A stretch of 18,303 bases of DNA from Escherichia coli. GTDB taxonomy: Bacteria; Pseudomonadota; Gammaproteobacteria; Enterobacterales; Enterobacteriaceae. Below are positions 1-9,924 of this stretch, one piece after another. Position 1 is the first letter of the stretch; every line of letters begins with the position of its first letter. The stretch lies in NCBI RefSeq assembly GCF_003334815.1, contig NZ_QOWO01000054.1; one strand, written 5' to 3'. The position numbers were made by a program, and so were the translations under genes. The notes under the pieces are model-generated. The model searched no databases, was not told where the DNA came from, and saw only the letters and a program-made list of their open reading frames with translations.

Positions 1-199
1 GACAGGCCGCTTCGTCGGGCTATTTCCCGAATCGACGCACCATCGCGAAAATGCCAGCGTCGAATTGCGCTCAATATCGCCACGTTTATCACTCCTTGAT
101 TTCTCCCGCCATATCCAGACGGGAAACAGTGTCATACGTGGGTCAAATTTCGACGCAAATCTTTACCCTAAGTGGGTCAATTTTAGATGCAACTCAACA
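1..199. mobile_element. Probable terminal region of an IS21-family element (IS1326-like, as in In2) abutting the 3' end of tniB
   Basis: Two direct repeats about 24 bp long and 20/24 identical (138..161 and 173..196, gtgggtcaa...gcaa), typical of the multiple subterminal repeats at IS21-family ends. The reverse complement of the sequence ending at 199 begins TGTTGAG. Tn21 In2 is known to carry IS1326 next to truncated tniB. The boundary is not verified. Confidence 0.3.
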
Positions 200-1063
200 G
201 GCCATGCTGAGTGTGCGATGGTTGATCGCTTCCTCGCCGCTCTCCACGGCGACGATGGCCGCCGCCATCAGCAAGTGCGCCAGTTCCCCTATGGTGCCCT
301 CGCTGCGTGTGAGCAGGTAGCGAGCCATGTCCAGCGTGGCAATTGGGGAAGGCCGGCGCAGCGGGAGCGAAGCGGCGAAGCTGGCCAGCAGTGAGCAGCA
401 ATCGTCGTTGGCCTCCCATACCGGCAGCATCATCGGCTCGAAGCGATTTTCCAACTGGTCATCGGAGCGGATGGCTAGGTAGGCGTCGCGCGTGCCTACC
501 CCAACCAACGGGATGCGCAGTTCGTTGCCGAGGAAGCGCAGCAGGTTGAGGAATTCCCGGCGGTTGACGCTGTTGCCGGCCAGCACGTTGTGCAGCTCGT
601 CGATCACCAGCATGCGCACGCCGACCTTGCGCAGCAGTGCCAGAGCCAGTTGCTCCATTTCCGGCAACCGTGGGCGTGGGCGCAGCGGCGCGCCCATCGC
701 GGCGAGCAGCGCGACGTAGAAGCGGATCACGGACGGCTCGGACGGCATCTGCACGACCAACACCGGGATGTGCTCCTGGTCGGCGTCGGAGCTGGCCGGG
801 TGGGTGCGGCGGAACTTCTCGACGATCATCGACTTGCCATTGTTGGTCGGGCCAACCAGCAGCAGGTTGGGCATGCGTTGCTTGTTTGGCCACGCATAAA
901 GGGCTTCCAGCCGGTTCAGCGCCTCGACTGCGCGCGGATAGCCGATCCAGCGGTCGGCGCGAAGGCGCTGGATGCGCTCGTCCGCCGGAAGACGGGCCAA
1001 GCCCTGGGCCGCCGGCAGCAGGTGGGACAGGTCGATGATGGGATATTCGTCCACGGCTACCAC
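194..1063 (-). CDS. tniB: TniB, Tn402/Tn5053-family transposition ATP-binding protein, probably the 3'-truncated tniB-delta form
   Basis: 289-aa ORF with Walker A motif GPTNNGKS and Walker B-like LVIDELH. It lies immediately downstream of tniA with a 7-nt overlap. The first codon at 1061..1063 is GTG. It is shorter than the roughly 302-aa full-length TniB I recall, and its stop falls inside the putative IS terminus. Confidence 0.8.
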   Translation of the reverse strand: MVAVDEYPIIDLSHLLPAAQGLARLPADERIQRLRADRWIGYPRAVEALNRLEALYAWPNKQRMPNLLLVGPTNNGKSMIVEKFRRTHPASSDADQEHIPVLVVQMPSEPSVIRFYVALLAAMGAPLRPRPRLPEMEQLALALLRKVGVRMLVIDELHNVLAGNSVNRREFLNLLRFLGNELRIPLVGVGTRDAYLAIRSDDQLENRFEPMMLPVWEANDDCCSLLASFAASLPLRRPSPIATLDMARYLLTRSEGTIGELAHLLMAAAIVAVESGEEAINHRTLSMAC

Positions 1064-2736
1064 TCCTCAATCTGGTCGAACGGTTTGGCGGGTGGCAAGT
1101 TGTCTGCCTGCGGGTCGGCAATATCCGTATCCGGCGGAACGGGCTTGTCCGGCCGAGCTGATGTCTTGAGGTGCTGGCGGCGATCCGCGTCACGCCGCGC
1201 CTTGCGTGTGGCCTTCTGCGCGCTGGTCACAATCTCACGCATCTGGCCGATCATGCGGAACAGCGCCGACTCATCCACCTGTTCGCGCCCTTGCTGCCGC
1301 AGTTTCGCCAGCGCCTGCCGTTGTTCCCAGAGGGTGACAGCCGGATGCGACAAGGTACGGTAGGGAATTTCCAGGTAATGCTGTCCCTCCGGTTCCAGGA
1401 CCCAGATACGGCTGATGTCGCGCGGATCGCGCCGGATCAGAAAGGACGGCCAGCGTTCACGCCGCGCAATCCACGGCTTGAGCGCATCGGCGTAGTAGTG
1501 GATGTGGTCGATGACAAAGCCGGTGCGGGTCAGCGTGCGCCGGAGGATCGGCAGAAAATCGACCAGGAACGAAGTAGCGCGTGTGACGACGGCCGGTACG
1601 CCGACACGCGCCACGGCCTCGGCCCAGCGCGCGGCCGGCGGTTGGAGCAGGCCGTTGTGCACCGAACCGTGGTAGGTGCCGACCGCCAATGTGAGCCAGC
1701 GCTCTAGCTCGCGCAGCGTCAGGGCGGCCTTGTTTTCGGAATCGTAGTCGCCGCGCTGGTCAGGGTTGGAGAAGGTCGTTCCCGGCAGTTCGTCGTGAAT
1801 CATCTGCATCGCCGTGCCGATGATCCGTTCCACGATGCCGCCATAGTGCGGCTGTCCCAGCGGGCGATAGTCCAGCCGGATGCCATGCTGCTCGCAACCC
1901 CGGCGCAGGGCCTCGCTCTTGAACTCGGCCGCGTTGTCTAGGTAGAGCAGCAAGGGCTTGCCGCTCATCTGCCAATCCATTTCCACGTTCAGTCCTTCCA
2001 GCCAAGGGCGCTTGTCGCAGGCGACATGCACGAGGCACAGGCCAACCGAAACGGCAGACGGCGCTTCCAGCGTGACGACCATGCCGAGCACGCAGCGGGT
2101 GAACACGTCGATGGCGAGGGTCAGGTACGGGCGGCCAATAGGTTGCCGGTCGCGGTCATCGACCACGATCAGGTCGATGACCGTATGGTCTATCTGCACC
2201 TGCTCCAGCGGCGCGGTCACGGCAGGAGGCTCGCCGCCCACACCTTGTAGGTCACGAGCGGCATCCTGGCCTTCCCGCCGGCGGATGACCTTGCGCGGGT
2301 CAAGGCTAGCGATCCGTAAGGCCACGGTATTGCGCGCCGGCACTCGCAGTTTTTGAGCCTTGCACACCTGAGTGACTTCGCGGTGAAAGGCCGCTAGGCT
2401 GCGCTTCTGCTTGGTCAGGAACCGCTTTTGCAGTAGCTCGTGGATGACGCGCTCGACCGGTTCCGGCAAGCGCCCCTTACCTTTACCTCCACCGGACTGG
2501 CCGGGCACCAGATCCGTCACGAGGCCGCTGCCTTGCCGGGCACGCCGGATCAGAACGTATACCTGGCGCCGAGACAAGCCCAGCGCCTGAGCCGCCATAT
2601 CGGCCGCTTCGTGCCCGACCGTCTCCGACTGCGCCAACGGACTGATGATCTCCGCACGACGGCGCGCACGCTCCCAAGCCTCATCAGGCAGAGTGGCCAC
2701 GCCTTGTTCTGGAATCCGTGGGGTGTCCGTCGCCAT
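1057..2736 (-). CDS. tniA: TniA, Tn402/Tn5053-family DDE transposase
   Basis: 559-aa protein starting MATDTPRIPEQ at the ATG at 2734..2736, preceded by GAGGTG. The longer 571-aa ORF in the track is an upstream extension. Position next to IRt matches Tn402-type elements. Confidence 0.9.
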   Translation of the reverse strand: MATDTPRIPEQGVATLPDEAWERARRRAEIISPLAQSETVGHEAADMAAQALGLSRRQVYVLIRRARQGSGLVTDLVPGQSGGGKGKGRLPEPVERVIHELLQKRFLTKQKRSLAAFHREVTQVCKAQKLRVPARNTVALRIASLDPRKVIRRREGQDAARDLQGVGGEPPAVTAPLEQVQIDHTVIDLIVVDDRDRQPIGRPYLTLAIDVFTRCVLGMVVTLEAPSAVSVGLCLVHVACDKRPWLEGLNVEMDWQMSGKPLLLYLDNAAEFKSEALRRGCEQHGIRLDYRPLGQPHYGGIVERIIGTAMQMIHDELPGTTFSNPDQRGDYDSENKAALTLRELERWLTLAVGTYHGSVHNGLLQPPAARWAEAVARVGVPAVVTRATSFLVDFLPILRRTLTRTGFVIDHIHYYADALKPWIARRERWPSFLIRRDPRDISRIWVLEPEGQHYLEIPYRTLSHPAVTLWEQRQALAKLRQQGREQVDESALFRMIGQMREIVTSAQKATRKARRDADRRQHLKTSARPDKPVPPDTDIADPQADNLPPAKPFDQIEEW

Positions 2737-2751
2737 GCTCACCTCGCTTTG

Positions 2752-2877
2752 GTGCACACGAGTATTGAGCATAGTCGAGATTGGTGCAGATCACTTCTGA
2801 TATTGAACTGTCAGGAGCTGGCTGCACAACAGCCATTACGCCCAATCAACTGGTGCAGTCGTCTTCTGAAAATGACA
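2752..2877. repeat. Tn402/class 1 integron t-end: 25-bp IRt at 2853..2877 plus subterminal TniA-binding-type repeats
   Basis: 2853..2877 reads gtgcagtcgtcttctgaaaatgaca, whose reverse complement TGTCATTTTCAGAAGACGACTGCAC matches the IRt sequence as I recall it. Similar g(g/c)tgca(c/g)-initiated repeats start near 2752, 2784 and 2822. Confidence 0.8.
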
Positions 2878-3518
2878 TCCATGCCCAGCCCGTGCGCGAG
2901 CTGGATCACCGCCCGCACGATAGTTTGGTCACGGGCATCATCCGGGAGCCTGGCGACAAAGGATTGGTCGATTTTCAATGTGGTGATGGGGCAGCATTTC
3001 AGATGTTGCAGGCAGGAATAGCCGGTGCCGAAGTCGTCGGCGGCGAAGCGCACGCCGATGGCGCGCAAGGCGTCGAAACTGGCGAACAGGGCTGGATTGC
3101 CGAATGCGACCGATTCGGTCAGTTCGATCTCCAGAAGCTCGGCGGGCAGGGCCATATCGGCCAGCACCCGCTTTACCTCGTCGTCGAACGTTGGCCCAAC
3201 CTGGCTGGCGGACACATTGATGGCAAGACGGAACGGTTGCCATGCCGGTCCTTGCCACTTGTGCATCTGGCGACAGGCCTCGCCCAGCACCCACGCGCCT
3301 ATTTCCGGCATCAGGCCGAACGACTCGGCCAGCGGCAGGAACTGGCCGGGCGGCAACAGGCCAAGCCTCGGATGCCGCCAGCGCATCAACGCTTCCGCGC
3401 CAGCGATCCGGTGATCGCGCAGATCGACCAGCGGCTGGTAATGCAGGTCAAGCTGTCCGCGCGCCGCCGCCTGCGCCAACTCGGCCGCCGTCCATCCGGC
3501 GGGCTGCGAACTCGTCAT
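2811..3518 (-). CDS. urf2: urf2 (urf2M), EAL-domain protein and putative c-di-GMP phosphodiesterase, 3' end disrupted by the In2 insertion
   Basis: EAL-domain motifs are present: YQPLV, GAEALMRW, ELTES, DDFGTGYS, LKIDQSFV. Homology ends after ...HGLGMD at the IRt boundary (2877/2878); the last about 21 codons are read from integron sequence. The ATG at 3516..3518 overlaps the merE stop as ATGA. Confidence 0.7.
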   Translation of the reverse strand: MTSSQPAGWTAAELAQAAARGQLDLHYQPLVDLRDHRIAGAEALMRWRHPRLGLLPPGQFLPLAESFGLMPEIGAWVLGEACRQMHKWQGPAWQPFRLAINVSASQVGPTFDDEVKRVLADMALPAELLEIELTESVAFGNPALFASFDALRAIGVRFAADDFGTGYSCLQHLKCCPITTLKIDQSFVARLPDDARDQTIVRAVIQLAHGLGMDVIFRRRLHQLIGRNGCCAASS

Positions 3519-3751
3519 GATCCGCCCCGGAAGGCGCGCAGCAGCCGCGTTACGGCCAGAACGAACAAGCCGGTCAGCGCGAGCGCGGCAACACCCCAAT
3601 GCTCGCCAAGGAAGGCACCGGCGGTCGTCCCGGCCAGCACGGCGGCGAGAATCGGCAGATGGCAGGGGCAGGTCAACACGGCCAGCGCACCCCACAGGTA
3701 GCCGGAAACGGGTTGGCGCGTCTCGGGCGGCAGTTTGTCAGGGGCGTTCAC
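3515..3751 (-). CDS. merE: MerE, small membrane mercury transport protein
   Basis: 78 aa, (V)[37 protein letters not shown]..., with a GTG start at 3749..3751 that overlaps the merD stop as GTGA. The longer ORF in the track is an upstream extension. Confidence 0.85.
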
Positions 3752-4110
3752 GGCAATGCCTCCTCGTGCGCCCGCTCGGCTGGCATGGAGGCCAGTTGCG
3801 CGTCCAGATGGGCCAACGCCGCGCGCCGCCGCTCGACCAACTGGCGCAGCACGGCAAGCTGCGCTGCGGCTTGTGCGCCGTCCGCTGCGTCGAGCGCACG
3901 GCACAGCCGCGCCAGGGCATCCAGGCCGATACCCGCCTCGAAGGCCGCGCGCACGAAGCACAGCCGTTGCAAGGCCGCATCGTCGAACACGCCGTAGCCG
4001 CCCGTGGTGCAGGCCACCGGCCGTAACAAGCCGCGCACCAGGTAGTCGCGCACGATATGTACGCTCACCCCAGCGTTATGGGCCAGTTGCGATACCGTGT
4101 AGGCGCTCAT
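3748..4110 (-). CDS. merD: MerD, MerR-family co-regulator of the mer operon
   Basis: 120 aa starting [29 protein letters not shown], with an N-terminal helix-turn-helix. Sits immediately downstream of merA. Confidence 0.9.
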
Positions 4111-4127
4111 CGCACACCTCCTTGTCC

Positions 4128-5873
<1,746 letters not shown>

Positions 5874-6296
5874 TCACAAGCGCTTGGCGGGGAGTTCGCA
5901 GCCGTCCGGTCCGCAACGGCGATGCGCCGGCGACACGAAGTCCCAGATCGACACCCCAATCATCAAGGCCAGGCCGACGTACATCAGGTTCGCCGTCCAC
6001 CAGTTGCCGAGCAGCCAGACCGTGGCCGCAAACACGATGGCCGGGCCGATCATGCCGAGCAGACTGCGCAGCCATTGCCGATGACTGAACCAACCCAGCG
6101 CGTTCGCCAGGAAGGCCAGCGCGGCAAACAGCGGCAGCAGGCGGCTGATGAACAGTCCCTCGTACTGGCTCAAGAAGCCCAGCCCGATGGCCGCGCCGAA
6201 GCTGGCGAGGGCTGGAAAGCAGGCGGCGCAGCCCATCGCGGAAACGACGCTGCCGAGCGCGCCGGTTTTATCGGCAATGCGTGTCATCAGTCCCAT
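5874..6296 (-). CDS. merC: MerC, inner-membrane mercury transporter
   Basis: 140 aa from MGLMTRIADKTGALGSV..., several transmembrane segments and a GCAAC motif. Located between merP and merA as in Tn21. The track ORF adds 13 upstream codons. Confidence 0.9.
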   Translation of the reverse strand: MGLMTRIADKTGALGSVVSAMGCAACFPALASFGAAIGLGFLSQYEGLFISRLLPLFAALAFLANALGWFSHRQWLRSLLGMIGPAIVFAATVWLLGNWWTANLMYVGLALMIGVSIWDFVSPAHRRCGPDGCELPAKRL

Positions 6297-6331
6297 GAAG
6301 CGGCTCTCGCTGTTGTCGTTGGCTTGCTGGC

Positions 6332-6607
6332 TCACTGCTTGACGCTGGACGGATAGCCGGCGTCTGCGGTGGCCTTGGTCAGCTTCTGTACGCTGGCCTT
6401 GGTGTCGTCAAAAGTGACGACGGCCTCGCGCTTCTCGAAGCCCACATCGACCTTGCTCACGCCTTCGACCTTGGAGAGCGCTTTCTTGACTGTGATCGGG
6501 CAGGCGGCGCAAGTCATGCCGGGAACCGCTAGCGTGACGGTCTGGGTAGCGGCCCACACCGGGGCAACAGCGGCGGCGAGGGCAAGGGAGGCAAACAGTT
6601 TCTTCAT
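6332..6607 (-). CDS. merP: MerP, periplasmic mercury-binding protein
   Basis: 91 aa, MKKLFASLALAAAVAPVWA signal peptide followed by the GMTCAAC heavy-metal-binding motif. The track ORF has a 16-codon upstream extension. Confidence 0.95.
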   Translation of the reverse strand: MKKLFASLALAAAVAPVWAATQTVTLAVPGMTCAACPITVKKALSKVEGVSKVDVGFEKREAVVTFDDTKASVQKLTKATADAGYPSSVKQ

Positions 6608-6620
6608 GATGAACTCCTGG

Positions 6621-6971
6621 TTAATAGAAAAATGGAACGACATAGGGAAATCCAAGCGCGACCAGGACCAGCACGGCCACGATCCAGAAAATCAGCTTGT
6701 AGGTGGCGCGCACCTGCGGAATCGCGCAGACCTCACCTGGCTTGCATGCCTGCACGGGCCGGTAAATCCGCTTCCAGGCGAAGAACAGCGCCACTAGCGC
6801 CGCGCCGATGAACAACGGTCGATAGGGTTCCAGCACCGTCAGGTTGCCGATCCAAGCACCGGAGAAGCCCAGGGCGACCAGTACTAGCGGCCCCAGGCAG
6901 CAGGTCGATGCAAGAATGGCGGCCAGCCCGCCGGCGAAGAGCGCACCGCGCCCGTTTTGTGGTTCAGACAT
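6621..6971 (-). CDS. merT: MerT, mercuric ion transport protein
   Basis: 116 aa from [28 protein letters not shown]..., with the vicinal Cys pair in the first transmembrane segment. The ATG is at 6969..6971. Confidence 0.95.
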
Positions 6972-7000
6972 ACGTTGGCCCTTTTGAATTTGGATTGGAT

Positions 7001-7042
7001 AGCGTAACCTTACTTCCGTACTCATGTACGGAGTCAAGCGAT
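7001..7042. promoter_or_regulatory. mer operator/promoter: MerR-binding dyad inside the PmerT spacer, divergent from merR
   Basis: On the minus strand, -35 TTGACT (7033..7038) and -10 TAAGGT (7007..7012) are separated by a 19-bp spacer that holds the dyad TCCGTAC-ATGA-GTACGGA (7015..7032). This matches the Tn21/Tn501 merOP architecture. Confidence 0.85.
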
Positions 7043-7477
7043 ATGGAAAATAATTTGGAAAACCTGACCATTGGCGTTTTTGCCAAGGCGGCCGGGGTCA
7101 ACGTGGAGACAATCCGCTTCTATCAGCGCAAGGGCCTGTTGCGGGAACCGGACAAGCCTTACGGCAGCATCCGCCGCTATGGGGAGGCGGACGTGGTTCG
7201 GGTGAAATTCGTGAAATCGGCACAGCGGCTGGGGTTCAGTCTGGACGAGATTGCCGAGCTGTTGCGGCTCGACGATGGCACCCACTGCGAGGAGGCCAGC
7301 AGCCTGGCCGAACACAAGCTCAAGGACGTGCGCGAGAAGATGGCCGACTTGGCGCGCATGGAAACCGTGCTGTCTGAACTCGTGTGCGCCTGCCATGCAC
7401 GAAAGGGGAATGTTTCCTGCCCGTTGATCGCGTCACTACAGGGCGAAGCAGGCCTGGCAAGGTCAGCTATGCCTTAG
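7043..7477 (+). CDS. merR: MerR, Hg(II)-responsive transcriptional regulator
   Basis: 144 aa starting [33 protein letters not shown], with an N-terminal helix-turn-helix and C-terminal Cys residues. Transcribed divergently from merT. The track ORF has a 45-codon upstream extension. Confidence 0.95.
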
Positions 7478-7510
7478 CGTGCTTTATTTTCCGTTTTCTG
7501 AGGTGCCCCC
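7473..7510. repeat. IRmer, the 38-bp terminal inverted repeat of a Tn21-family (Tn3-superfamily) transposon
   Basis: cttagcgtgctttattttccgttttctgaggtgccccc is the reverse complement of the GGGGGCACCTCAGAAAACGGAAAATAAAGCACGCTAAG terminus. It overlaps the merR stop as in Tn21. Confidence 0.85.
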
Positions 7511-7551
7511 TTGAAGATCAACTGGCGAAATCAGTTGCTAATATCCTGTAA
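7511..7551 (+). pseudogene. traT: Probable 3' remnant of traT (surface exclusion lipoprotein), truncated by the Tn21-family insertion
   Basis: The frame ending at TAA 7549..7551 encodes (L)EDQLAKSVANIL, matching the F/R100 TraT C-terminus ...EDQLAKSIANIL as I recall it. It lies 141 bp upstream of traD, where traT sits in F-like plasmids. Confidence 0.5.
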
Positions 7552-7558
7552 GACTTTC

Positions 7559-7579
7559 CGGGTGGCCAGCGGTCACCCG
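7559..7579 (+). terminator. Possible stem-loop after the traT remnant (weak terminator candidate)
   Basis: cgggtggcc-agc-ggtcacccg forms a 9-bp stem with a 3-nt loop, followed by T-rich but interrupted sequence. Confidence 0.25.
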
Positions 7580-7692
7580 TATTAAAACGCTTCTCTGTTA
7601 TTTTATTCTCCGCAGTAATCAGAATAAACTCGTTCTGTTTGTAAGGTTTTTTCTGAAGCACCTTCACTGAGTATTATTCTCCGGAAAATATT

Positions 7693-9924
7693 ATGAGTCT
7701 GAATCCTCGCGACTTAACGCAGGGTGGTCAGGTTGCTTTTATGCGCCTGAAAATGTTCCTGCAAATAAATAACCTGATTTCTTATTATGTCATCATGGGG
7801 ACAGTGTTATTTGGTATTGCCGTCCTGCTGATGCGAATAAGCATCCAGAATCTGACCAACGGTATTATTTACTGGTTTGTCCGGATGATTTCACCTTTTA
7901 CGGAAAAAATGGTGAGTCAGCCTGTCTATACCATCCGTTATTACGAACATAAGCTGCAGTACAGTGCACGTCAGATACTGAATGATGATTACACCGTATA
8001 TTGCGGTCAGTTGCTGAAGCAGGAGCTGATTATTGCTGGTTGCGCCGCGCTGCTGGTCGCCTTTGTGGCCACATTCGCCGTGTACTGGTATATCGGGCGC
8101 ACCGGTCGCCAGCAGAGTGAGGATGAAATCATCGGGGGCCGCGCTCTCAGTGAGTCACCAAAAGACGTTGCCCGGATGATGAAAAAACGTGGGGAAGCAT
8201 CCGATATCCGCATCGATGACCTGCCGCTGAAGCTGGATTCTGAAATACAGAATATGTCCATGCACGGTACTGTATCGACCGGTAAGTCCACTCTGATGCG
8301 CAAGATTATGAAGCAACTGCGCGACAGGGGGGACCTGGTCATTATCTACGACAAGGGCTGTACGTTCATTGAGGATTTCTACGATGAATCCCGGGATAAA
8401 GTGCTTAATGCGCTGGATGCCCGTTGCCCCAACTGGGATTTGTGGGAAGAGTGCCGTACGATTTCCGAACTGGAGAATGCCAGTGCAACCTTGATCCCGG
8501 CCAGCAGTGGTGAAGATCCGTTCTGGCAGGGCAGTGCGCGTACCATCTTTGCGGAAGGCGCAGAACGCATGCGCAGGGATGAAGACCGCAGCTACAATAA
8601 ATTCCTGCGCACTCTGCTGGCTATTCAGCTTGATCAACTGAGAACGTTTCTTGCCGGCACGCCCGCTTCCACCCTAGTTGACGGTAAGATTGAGAAGACC
8701 GCCATTTCCATCCGCAGCGTGCTGACTAACTACGTCAAGGCGATGCGTTATCTGCAGGGTATCGACAGGCCCGGACGCGAAAAGTTTACCATCCGGGAAT
8801 GGATGAAGGGCCAGGCCGATAAATCGAAAAATGGCTGGCTCTTTATTACCTCCGACGAACAGAACCATGAGTCTCTTAAGCCATTGATTTCACTGTGGCT
8901 AAGTATTGCAGCCACCAGTCTGCTGGCGATGGGGCCGAACCGCCAGCGACGTGTCTGGTTTTTTTATGACGAACTGGCTTCTTTACACAAATTACCGACT
9001 CTGCCACGAATTATTTCGGAGGCGCGTAAGTTTGGCGGCTGTTTTGTCCTGGGCTTCCAGAGCTTCGCACAGCTGGAAGAAATTTACGGCCCGAAAGCGG
9101 CGGCGGCGCTGTTTGACCTGCTGAATACCAAATTCTTCTTCCGCTCCCCGAGCGCCCAGATTGCGAAGTTTGTGGAGGAAGATATCGGTGAAACCTGGCG
9201 AAAAAAATTCAGTGAACAGACCAGCTTTGGTCATGAACAGGTGCGTGACGGGATTTCTTTTGGCAAGGAAGAAGAACGCGTCAGTATTGTCAGCTACTCC
9301 GATGTGCAGTCCCTGAACGACCTGCAGTGTTTTGTCACCCTGCCGGGAAGTTATCCGGTGGTGAAACTGACAATGAAGTATGAGGCGATGCCCAAAGTGG
9401 CTGACTCGCTGTTGTTGCGTGATGTACAGACCAGTCTGGATCAGATGCTTGAAGATGAAATTACCCGTCGCACTGAAGAAGAGAGGCATAAGTTTGCCGG
9501 CCTGTTCGAAGGGGCGTCGTTAATTCAGGCTGTTCCGGAGAGTAATCTGTCGAATACGCCCCCTCCTTCTGCCGGCCGGGTGGCTGCTGTTCTTGCGGAA
9601 ACAAACACACCTCCTGAGACGCGCACATTACAGACAGAAAACGCTGCCGGCGATGCAGATACCAAAAACACGGGATCCACTGCTGTTGCAGCGGAAGGTG
9701 GCTCCACCTCCACCGGAGGAACTGAGCGGGATATTGAACAGGATTTACCTAAGGACGTTCCTCCGGGTCTGAACAGCGATGGTGAGGTGGTGGATTCCGA
9801 AGCGTATGAGGACTGGGTTCAGGCTTCACATCAGACCCGCGATATGACCCGCAGGGAAGAGGTCAACATCAATCATGCGACAGATAAAGCGCGTGATTTT
9901 GATGACGACAGGGAGGTGTTCTGA
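7693..9924 (+). CDS. traD: TraD, type IV coupling protein of an F-like conjugation system
   Basis: 743 aa, collinear with F TraD (MSLNPRDLTQGGQ vs F MSFNAKDMTQGGQ), N-terminal transmembrane segments, Walker A HGTVSTGKST, acidic C-terminus ending DDDREVF. Divergent from F itself. Confidence 0.95.
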   Translation: MSLNPRDLTQGGQVAFMRLKMFLQINNLISYYVIMGTVLFGIAVLLMRISIQNLTNGIIYWFVRMISPFTEKMVSQPVYTIRYYEHKLQYSARQILNDDYTVYCGQLLKQELIIAGCAALLVAFVATFAVYWYIGRTGRQQSEDEIIGGRALSESPKDVARMMKKRGEASDIRIDDLPLKLDSEIQNMSMHGTVSTGKSTLMRKIMKQLRDRGDLVIIYDKGCTFIEDFYDESRDKVLNALDARCPNWDLWEECRTISELENASATLIPASSGEDPFWQGSARTIFAEGAERMRRDEDRSYNKFLRTLLAIQLDQLRTFLAGTPASTLVDGKIEKTAISIRSVLTNYVKAMRYLQGIDRPGREKFTIREWMKGQADKSKNGWLFITSDEQNHESLKPLISLWLSIAATSLLAMGPNRQRRVWFFYDELASLHKLPTLPRIISEARKFGGCFVLGFQSFAQLEEIYGPKAAAALFDLLNTKFFFRSPSAQIAKFVEEDIGETWRKKFSEQTSFGHEQVRDGISFGKEEERVSIVSYSDVQSLNDLQCFVTLPGSYPVVKLTMKYEAMPKVADSLLLRDVQTSLDQMLEDEITRRTEEERHKFAGLFEGASLIQAVPESNLSNTPPPSAGRVAAVLAETNTPPETRTLQTENAAGDADTKNTGSTAVAAEGGSTSTGGTERDIEQDLPKDVPPGLNSDGEVVDSEAYEDWVQASHQTRDMTRREEVNINHATDKARDFDDDREVF

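Follow-up and report, generated by a model that had tools for sequence, protein, structure and literature searches.

A Tn21-type transposon in the 3′ end of traT of an F-like Escherichia coli plasmid: two junctions, a target duplication and an exact empty site

The window analyzed here is the whole stretch of 18,303 nucleotides of Escherichia coli DNA, corresponding to one entire draft contig (GCA_003334815.1, QOWO01000054.1; L013), in which the mercury-resistance end of a Tn21-type transposon abuts the distal part of a conjugative transfer region (Table 1). The last transposon gene, merR, points outward on the strand of traD, and its stop codon falls inside the terminal inverted repeat IRmer. 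Beyond this repeat come an orphaned 3′ end of traT, the intact genes traD and traI, and traX, which Pfam and NCBIfam assign to the TraX acetylases. The order traG-traS-traT-traD-traI-traX, read from Pfam and NCBIfam matches in the window and in two further contigs described below (L012 and L020), is that of an F-type (MOBF/MPF_F) plasmid.

Table 1. Features of the transposon end and of the adjoining transfer region (window coordinates; a dot marks a feature without strand)
Feature	Position	Strand	Basis or remark
IS1326 end, running off the contig	1..170	.	joins tniB-delta directly, without IS1353
tniB, truncated as in In2	194..1054	-	Pfam TniB/AAA_22; identical to R100 Tn21
tniA	1057..2772	-	Pfam Mu-transpos_C; identical to R100 Tn21
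urf2 (EAL-domain ORF), its end entering the integron IRt	2811..3518	-	Pfam EAL
IRt, 25 bp, outer end of the class 1 integron in the transposon	2853..2877	+	exact GTGCAGTCGTCTTCTGAAAATGACA
merE, merD, merA, merC, merP, merT	3515..6971	-	Pfam MerE, MerR_1, HMA/Pyr_redox, MerC, HMA, MerT
merR	7043..7477	+	Pfam MerR; outward toward IRmer and traD
IRmer, 38-bp terminal inverted repeat of Tn21	7473..7510	-	38/38 to R100 IRmer
Orphaned traT 3′ end: 12 codons, EDQLAKSVANIL, and stop	7511..7551	+	
TTGAA, right-hand copy of the 5-bp target-site duplication	7511..7515	.	
9-bp GC-rich hairpin just past the traT stop, in the native spacer	7559..7579	+	fold
traD, coupling protein, intact, 743 aa	7693..9924	+	Pfam TraD_N/TrwB_AAD_bind
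traI, relaxase/helicase, intact, 1764 aa	9924..15218	+	Pfam TrwC/TraI domains

Comparison of the transposon part with the Tn21 of R100 (NC_002134.1) yielded an exact match of window positions 171-7510 to Tn21 positions 59-7398 (7,340 of 7,340 bases), the mer operon (3515-6971) included. Positions 1-176 are 99.4% identical to R100 9009-9184, with apparent mismatches at 169-170 that correspond to the edge of the IS1353 site. For urf2, the NCBIfam matches to the EAL phosphodiesterase domain all lay under the curated cut-offs. The element displays three features of the Tn21 subgroup (Tn3 family): 38-bp terminal repeats that start with GGGG and are inverted with respect to each other (35 of 38 positions agree between IRmer and IRtnp), a 5-bp target duplication (TTGAA), and a mer operon (merR/merTPCADE) beside IRmer. 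It shares with R100 Tn21 both terminal repeats (IRmer and IRtnp), merRTPCADE-urf2, IRt, tniA, tniB-delta, IS1326 and the presence of a 5-bp duplication, and differs from it in two respects. First, the R100 copy carries IS1353 within IS1326, and the present copy does not. Second, as the original prediction had it, the placement is not that of R100, where Tn21 sits in the IS1-flanked r-determinant, next to catA1/IS1 and flanked by TATTA, whereas the target here is the 3′ end of traT and the duplicated sequence is TTGAA. With respect to the sequence itself, R100 positions 7398 and about 9009 are joined directly in the window, and IS1326 is uninterrupted by IS1353.

Of the putative In2-type integron, IRt, tniA, tniB-delta and the end of IS1326 are seen, identical to R100 and with IS1353 absent, whereas intI1, attI and the cassettes would lie outside the window. 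The proposal that a mercury-resistance and integron platform was planted inside the transfer region is confirmed for mer, and for the integron only as far as its tniA/tniB-delta/IS1326 end; the platform as such is reasonable to infer from the identity with Tn21, the tni/IS1326 end being the part in view. Overall, the element is represented by a 7.5 kb mer end and a 76 bp tnp end, with tnpA, tnpR, res, intI1 and the cassettes assumed, and a later internal rearrangement of the transposon is possible. The window stops within IS1326 on the left and within a DUF2726 gene on the right, and the contig with the other transposon end (L020) stops 38 bp beyond IRtnp; these end points suggest further copies of the contig-end sequences elsewhere in the genome.

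At the right junction, positions 7473-7510 read CTTAGCGTGCTTTATTTTCCGTTTTCTGAGGTGCCCCC, the reverse complement of which, GGGGGCACCTCAGAAAACGGAAAATAAAGCACGCTAAG, matches the R100 Tn21 IRmer exactly over 38 bp, so that this repeat does end at 7510 as originally predicted. The accompanying claim that the next 41 bp encode the last 12 residues of TraT and its stop proved correct as well, positions 7511-7551 being an exact TraT C-terminus. Translation of 7510-7551 (+ strand) gives LEDQLAKSVANIL followed by the stop, the same as the C-terminus of the intact 245-aa TraT of related plasmids, and 11 of the last 12 residues are those of F-plasmid TraT, a protein of solved structure (PDB). The C at 7510 is a base of the inverted repeat and coincides with the traT base at the same position. 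The distance to traD has to be amended: the 141 bp that had been assigned to the insertion is the spacer (7552-7692) between the traT stop, which ends at 7551, and the traD ATG at 7693, and 182 bp separate this ATG from the insertion point (7510/7511) upstream. The spacer is native, as the uninterrupted plasmid L012 also has 141 bp between the two genes (traT 6891-7628, traD from 7770).

Since the window comprises an entire draft contig, the other transposon end must lie elsewhere. A predicted chimeric TraT (…KPVLE joined to GVVSENGK and a stop, 242 aa) was built from the L012 allele and searched for by exact protein sequence. It was found exactly at the end of QOWO01000049.1 (L020) in the same assembly, where the contig end reads …CCTGTTCTTGAA followed by GGGGTCGTCTCAGAAAACGGAAAATAAAGCACGCTAAG, i.e., the 5′ 234 codons of traT and then IRtnp; the junction DNA is …aaacctgttcTTGAA joined to GGGGTCGTCTCAGAAAACGGAAAATAAAGCACGCTAAGccggttgcag… In this contig, IRtnp occupies 10703-10740 (38/38 vs. 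R100 Tn21), and the 38 bp between it and the contig end at 10778 are likewise identical to R100, so that all 76 bases of the transposon stub agree with the tnpA end of Tn21 in R100. TTGAA precedes IRtnp at 10698-10702. Both checks suggested along with the original prediction gave positive answers: 7511-7551 is the traT 3′ end, and the second transposon end exists, with the 5′ part of traT beyond IRtnp and the five bases of 7511-7515 repeated beside it. In the reading frame of this contig, the repeat (10703-10729) supplies eight codons and a TAA (GVVSENGK and stop); insertion of Tn21 in the same frame and orientation elsewhere would append the GVVSENGK tail to the target protein.

The TraI allele of the window, specific enough to find the source contig, was looked up by exact protein sequence and led to the contigs L012-L019. 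Among them, L012 (GCA_965212685.1, contig CBDBYT010000038.1) has an intact 245-aa traT and no transposon and represents the exact empty site. The left flank (L020, as far as the junction) agrees with it at 7,593 of 7,593 bases, the right flank (window 7511-18303, matched from L012 position 7588 onward) at 10,793 of 10,793. The two alignments share L012 7588-7592, a single copy of TTGAA, and the number of target bases lost is 0; the bases beside the duplication (C and G) match the tips of the repeats, and the count of 5 bp assumes the canonical 38-bp boundaries of the latter. The same procedure applied to R100 Tn21, as a positive control, recovered its TATTA duplication. The uninterrupted sister plasmids (L012 and L016-L019) share the TraI allele of the window and have 0 mismatches to its backbone on the compared stretches, which in L016-L019 amount to 7.8 kb with traT intact.

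We conclude that a Tn21-type transposon (mer and an In2-like class 1 integron remnant) entered traT at codon 234/235 in one event. Mechanistically, this was an ordinary replicative transposition: a Tn21-like element inserted and duplicated 5 bp of its target, as Tn21 usually does. A single clean transposition follows from the findings that 7511-7551 is the traT 3′ end and that the flank of the other transposon end is duplicated and contiguous in L012, the opposite of either of which had been named in advance as evidence against the prediction. The junctions lie on separate contigs, and we infer their linkage from the shared assembly, the matching duplication and the identical empty site. Identity over 7,340 of 7,340 bases to Tn21 and over 10,793 of 10,793 bases to the uninterrupted plasmid excludes chance as the source of the match. 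Taken as a whole, the explanation by a single Tn21-type insertion that duplicated TTGAA, altered TraT and separated the distal tra genes from the rest of the region is, in our estimate, very probably correct.

The insertion allele is predicted to encode an altered, not an intact, TraT. The 242-aa chimera keeps residues 1-234, and its last 11 residues (DQLAKSVANIL) are replaced by the eight encoded by the inverted repeat (GVVSENGK). It retains the PF05818 match, the lipobox and all transmembrane helices (234 of 245 codons kept), and falls short of a full-length TraT (signal peptide/lipobox, three membrane helices, beta-sandwich, helix alpha5) by the lost residues of the terminal helix. The original prediction of a disrupted traT is upheld insofar as the other junction does not restore the gene; with 234 of 245 codons remaining, 'disrupted' may be too strong a word. 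In the cryo-EM structure, TraT forms a decamer. Its protomers contain three membrane helices together with a β-sandwich and a pair of flanking helices, and the final helix, α5, hydrogen-bonds to the adjacent protomer (PMC11733297). The terminal helix was modelled at residues 226-244 by single-sequence AlphaFold (low confidence, mean pLDDT 40). Over the last 19 residues, the TraT of the window lineage agrees with that of F at 18, despite many differences elsewhere, a pattern that suggests constraint on the C-terminus. The lost residues form the distal half of the C-terminal helix, through which neighboring protomers are in contact, and surface exclusion is therefore probably weakened by the chimeric TraT, an expectation that we hold with moderate confidence.

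When traT was deleted from F, the exclusion index fell to 28, from about 474; viability and filamentation were affected slightly or not at all, and deletion of traS affected exclusion more than that of traT (PMC12445648). The gene at the traS position (L020 9263-9823) is intact upstream of the insertion; it was assigned by position and gave no family match. Entry exclusion by this gene should be untouched, and the traT lesion should be tolerated because the gene is intact. The insertion plasmid resembles the engineered F delta-traT plasmid (PMC12445648) in that the lesion is confined to traT and traS is kept. It differs in retaining most of TraT, and the engineered plasmid, a clean deletion with no 18-kb insert, has no polarity on traD and traI.

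This last difference concerns expression of the distal genes. About 18 kb of foreign DNA would lie between the tra operon promoter and traD, traI and traX; because of this separation, these genes would have to rely on read-through or on other promoters in or beyond the transposon (e.g., that of merR). As judged by gene orientations, transcripts from the main tra promoter would traverse tnpA/tnpR and the mer operon antisense. A consensus scan of 6900-7800 returned no σ70-like promoter and no canonical terminator, and the hairpin in the native spacer did not satisfy the T-tract rule of the terminator scan. Internal TraJ-independent promoters before traD and traI of F have been described in older literature; our literature search for promoters of F traD and traI found nothing.

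These considerations bear on the possibility that the insertion is functionally neutral, i.e., that the chimeric TraT still excludes, traD and traI are expressed from their own promoters, and transfer is unchanged. The presence of the lipobox and of all transmembrane helices within the 234 retained codons would be in keeping with neutrality, as would the intact 141-bp spacer before traD, the TraJ-independent promoters described for F, and the occurrence of the insertion in more than one dataset, which makes it at least tolerated. On the other hand, the residues lost belong to a helix that contacts the neighboring protomer, the C-terminus is near invariant with respect to F TraT amid divergence at many other positions, and the scan of 6900-7800 revealed nothing resembling a promoter ahead of traD. 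On balance, we consider neutrality possible and yet rather unlikely. At the other extreme, traD, traI and traX could have been moved off the TraJ-dependent promoter PY and onto merR read-through or an integron promoter, with TraT oligomerization and exclusion altered at the same time; if so, the DNA-transfer step of the plasmid would be uncoupled from its normal fertility control, an outcome that appears decidedly improbable.

With respect to the origin of the two junctions, the single insertion has to be weighed against ends that stem from different events, such as homologous recombination between two Tn21-like copies or a deletion or inversion ending at the inverted repeat. The interior of the transposon is unassembled, and the absence of IS1353 relative to R100 Tn21 indicates that the element has a history of its own, both of which leave some room for such a scenario. 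However, different events would give unrelated flanks and no duplication, whereas the observed flanks are contiguous in the empty-site plasmid, with 0 bases lost and exactly 5 bp duplicated, and we regard this alternative as very improbable. An assembly artefact, i.e., a chimeric contig fusing a Tn21 copy from elsewhere to the tra region, is scarcely credible. In its favor, the source is a draft assembled from short reads, the two contigs concerned terminate in repeated DNA (IS1326 in one, the tnpA end in the other), and sequences of the Tn21 type frequently occur in several copies. A misjoin would not, however, yield a matching duplication such as the exact 5 bp, as expected of transposition, present at the reciprocal junction. 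The right junction also recurs in an independent Logan assembly, made from another run (L015, SRR1060510_173): this contig opens with 29 bp of IRmer, directly followed by the identical traT tail. Another contig, from a third assembly (L014; GCA_012802195.1, DABDQN010000077.1), starts 2 bp past the junction.

The distribution of the junction was surveyed in several collections. No junction-spanning record was found in PLSDB (72,556 plasmids) or among 5,426 complete E. coli genomes; all traT/traD alignments in these two sets start at query base 211, which is window position 7510. A degenerate pattern covering both junctions had 0 matches in GTDB representative genomes. Its sole match in JGI metagenomes was rejected as a chance occurrence, having a non-traT flank and a different Tn21-family repeat (94%). 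This contig (Ga0209426_1007883; L022 3022-3062) carries the Tn21-family repeat GGGGTCGCCTCAG… flanked by TTCAA in a non-traT context, and the tnp end of its element is about 94% identical to Tn21. Exact-sequence lookup of the chimeric TraT gave two contigs and no others, and the equivalent chimera built on another common TraT allele gave none. An exact-protein lookup with TraD was uninformative on the insertion, since this allele is very common, and all ten matches listed have an intact traT. Literature searches turned up no description of Tn21 in traT, nor any paper in which the assemblies or runs with the junction are named. Transposons of the Tn3 family can insert at numerous sites, and it is nothing unusual to find resistance transposons in tra regions; the present case is a real but ordinary one, a further example of a kind of event that is very well understood, here at a site that none of the searched reference collections contains.

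The insertion leaves the understanding of Tn21 and of F-like plasmids unchanged. Its value is that of a clean reconstructed case of a resistance transposon in the transfer region of a conjugative plasmid, accompanied by an exact empty-site relative, and of a natural allele for asking whether the C-terminal helix of TraT matters to surface exclusion and whether traD and traI tolerate separation from the main tra promoter. A practical implication concerns the use of traT as a marker of serum resistance and virulence: the insertion allele would still score as traT-positive in most PCR and gene-presence screens despite its altered product.

The plasmid backbone itself is a diverged F-like lineage, for which reason nucleotide BLAST of window 7511-7692 against R100 gave no alignment. 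F TraT was compared as a protein instead of R100 nucleotides, and closer relatives of the plasmid served as the right comparators; the similarity to F TraT is close, the mature protein aligning over its full length (E 2e-120). In nucleotide sequence, traD/traI (window 7693-15218) are about 66% identical to R100, whereas the region after traX is back to 92% identity, and the backbone is therefore mosaic. A tblastn search for finO gave no match in the window or in L012. R100 has an alpha/beta-hydrolase gene and finO between traX and an ANR-family gene, whereas here an ANR-family ORF directly follows traX; thus, the lineage may be one without FinO at its usual place. The interval from traX to the nuclease gene is window 16530-17180. 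Two DUF2726 ORFs, one between traI and traX (15236-15802) and the other at the contig end (17931-18303), received no NCBIfam assignment. The 70-aa ORF at 16720-16932 (+) matches the ANR (AraC negative regulator) family narrowly, with a score of 33.5 vs. a curated cut-off of 32 bits, and R100 annotates the same ANR gene at the equivalent position.
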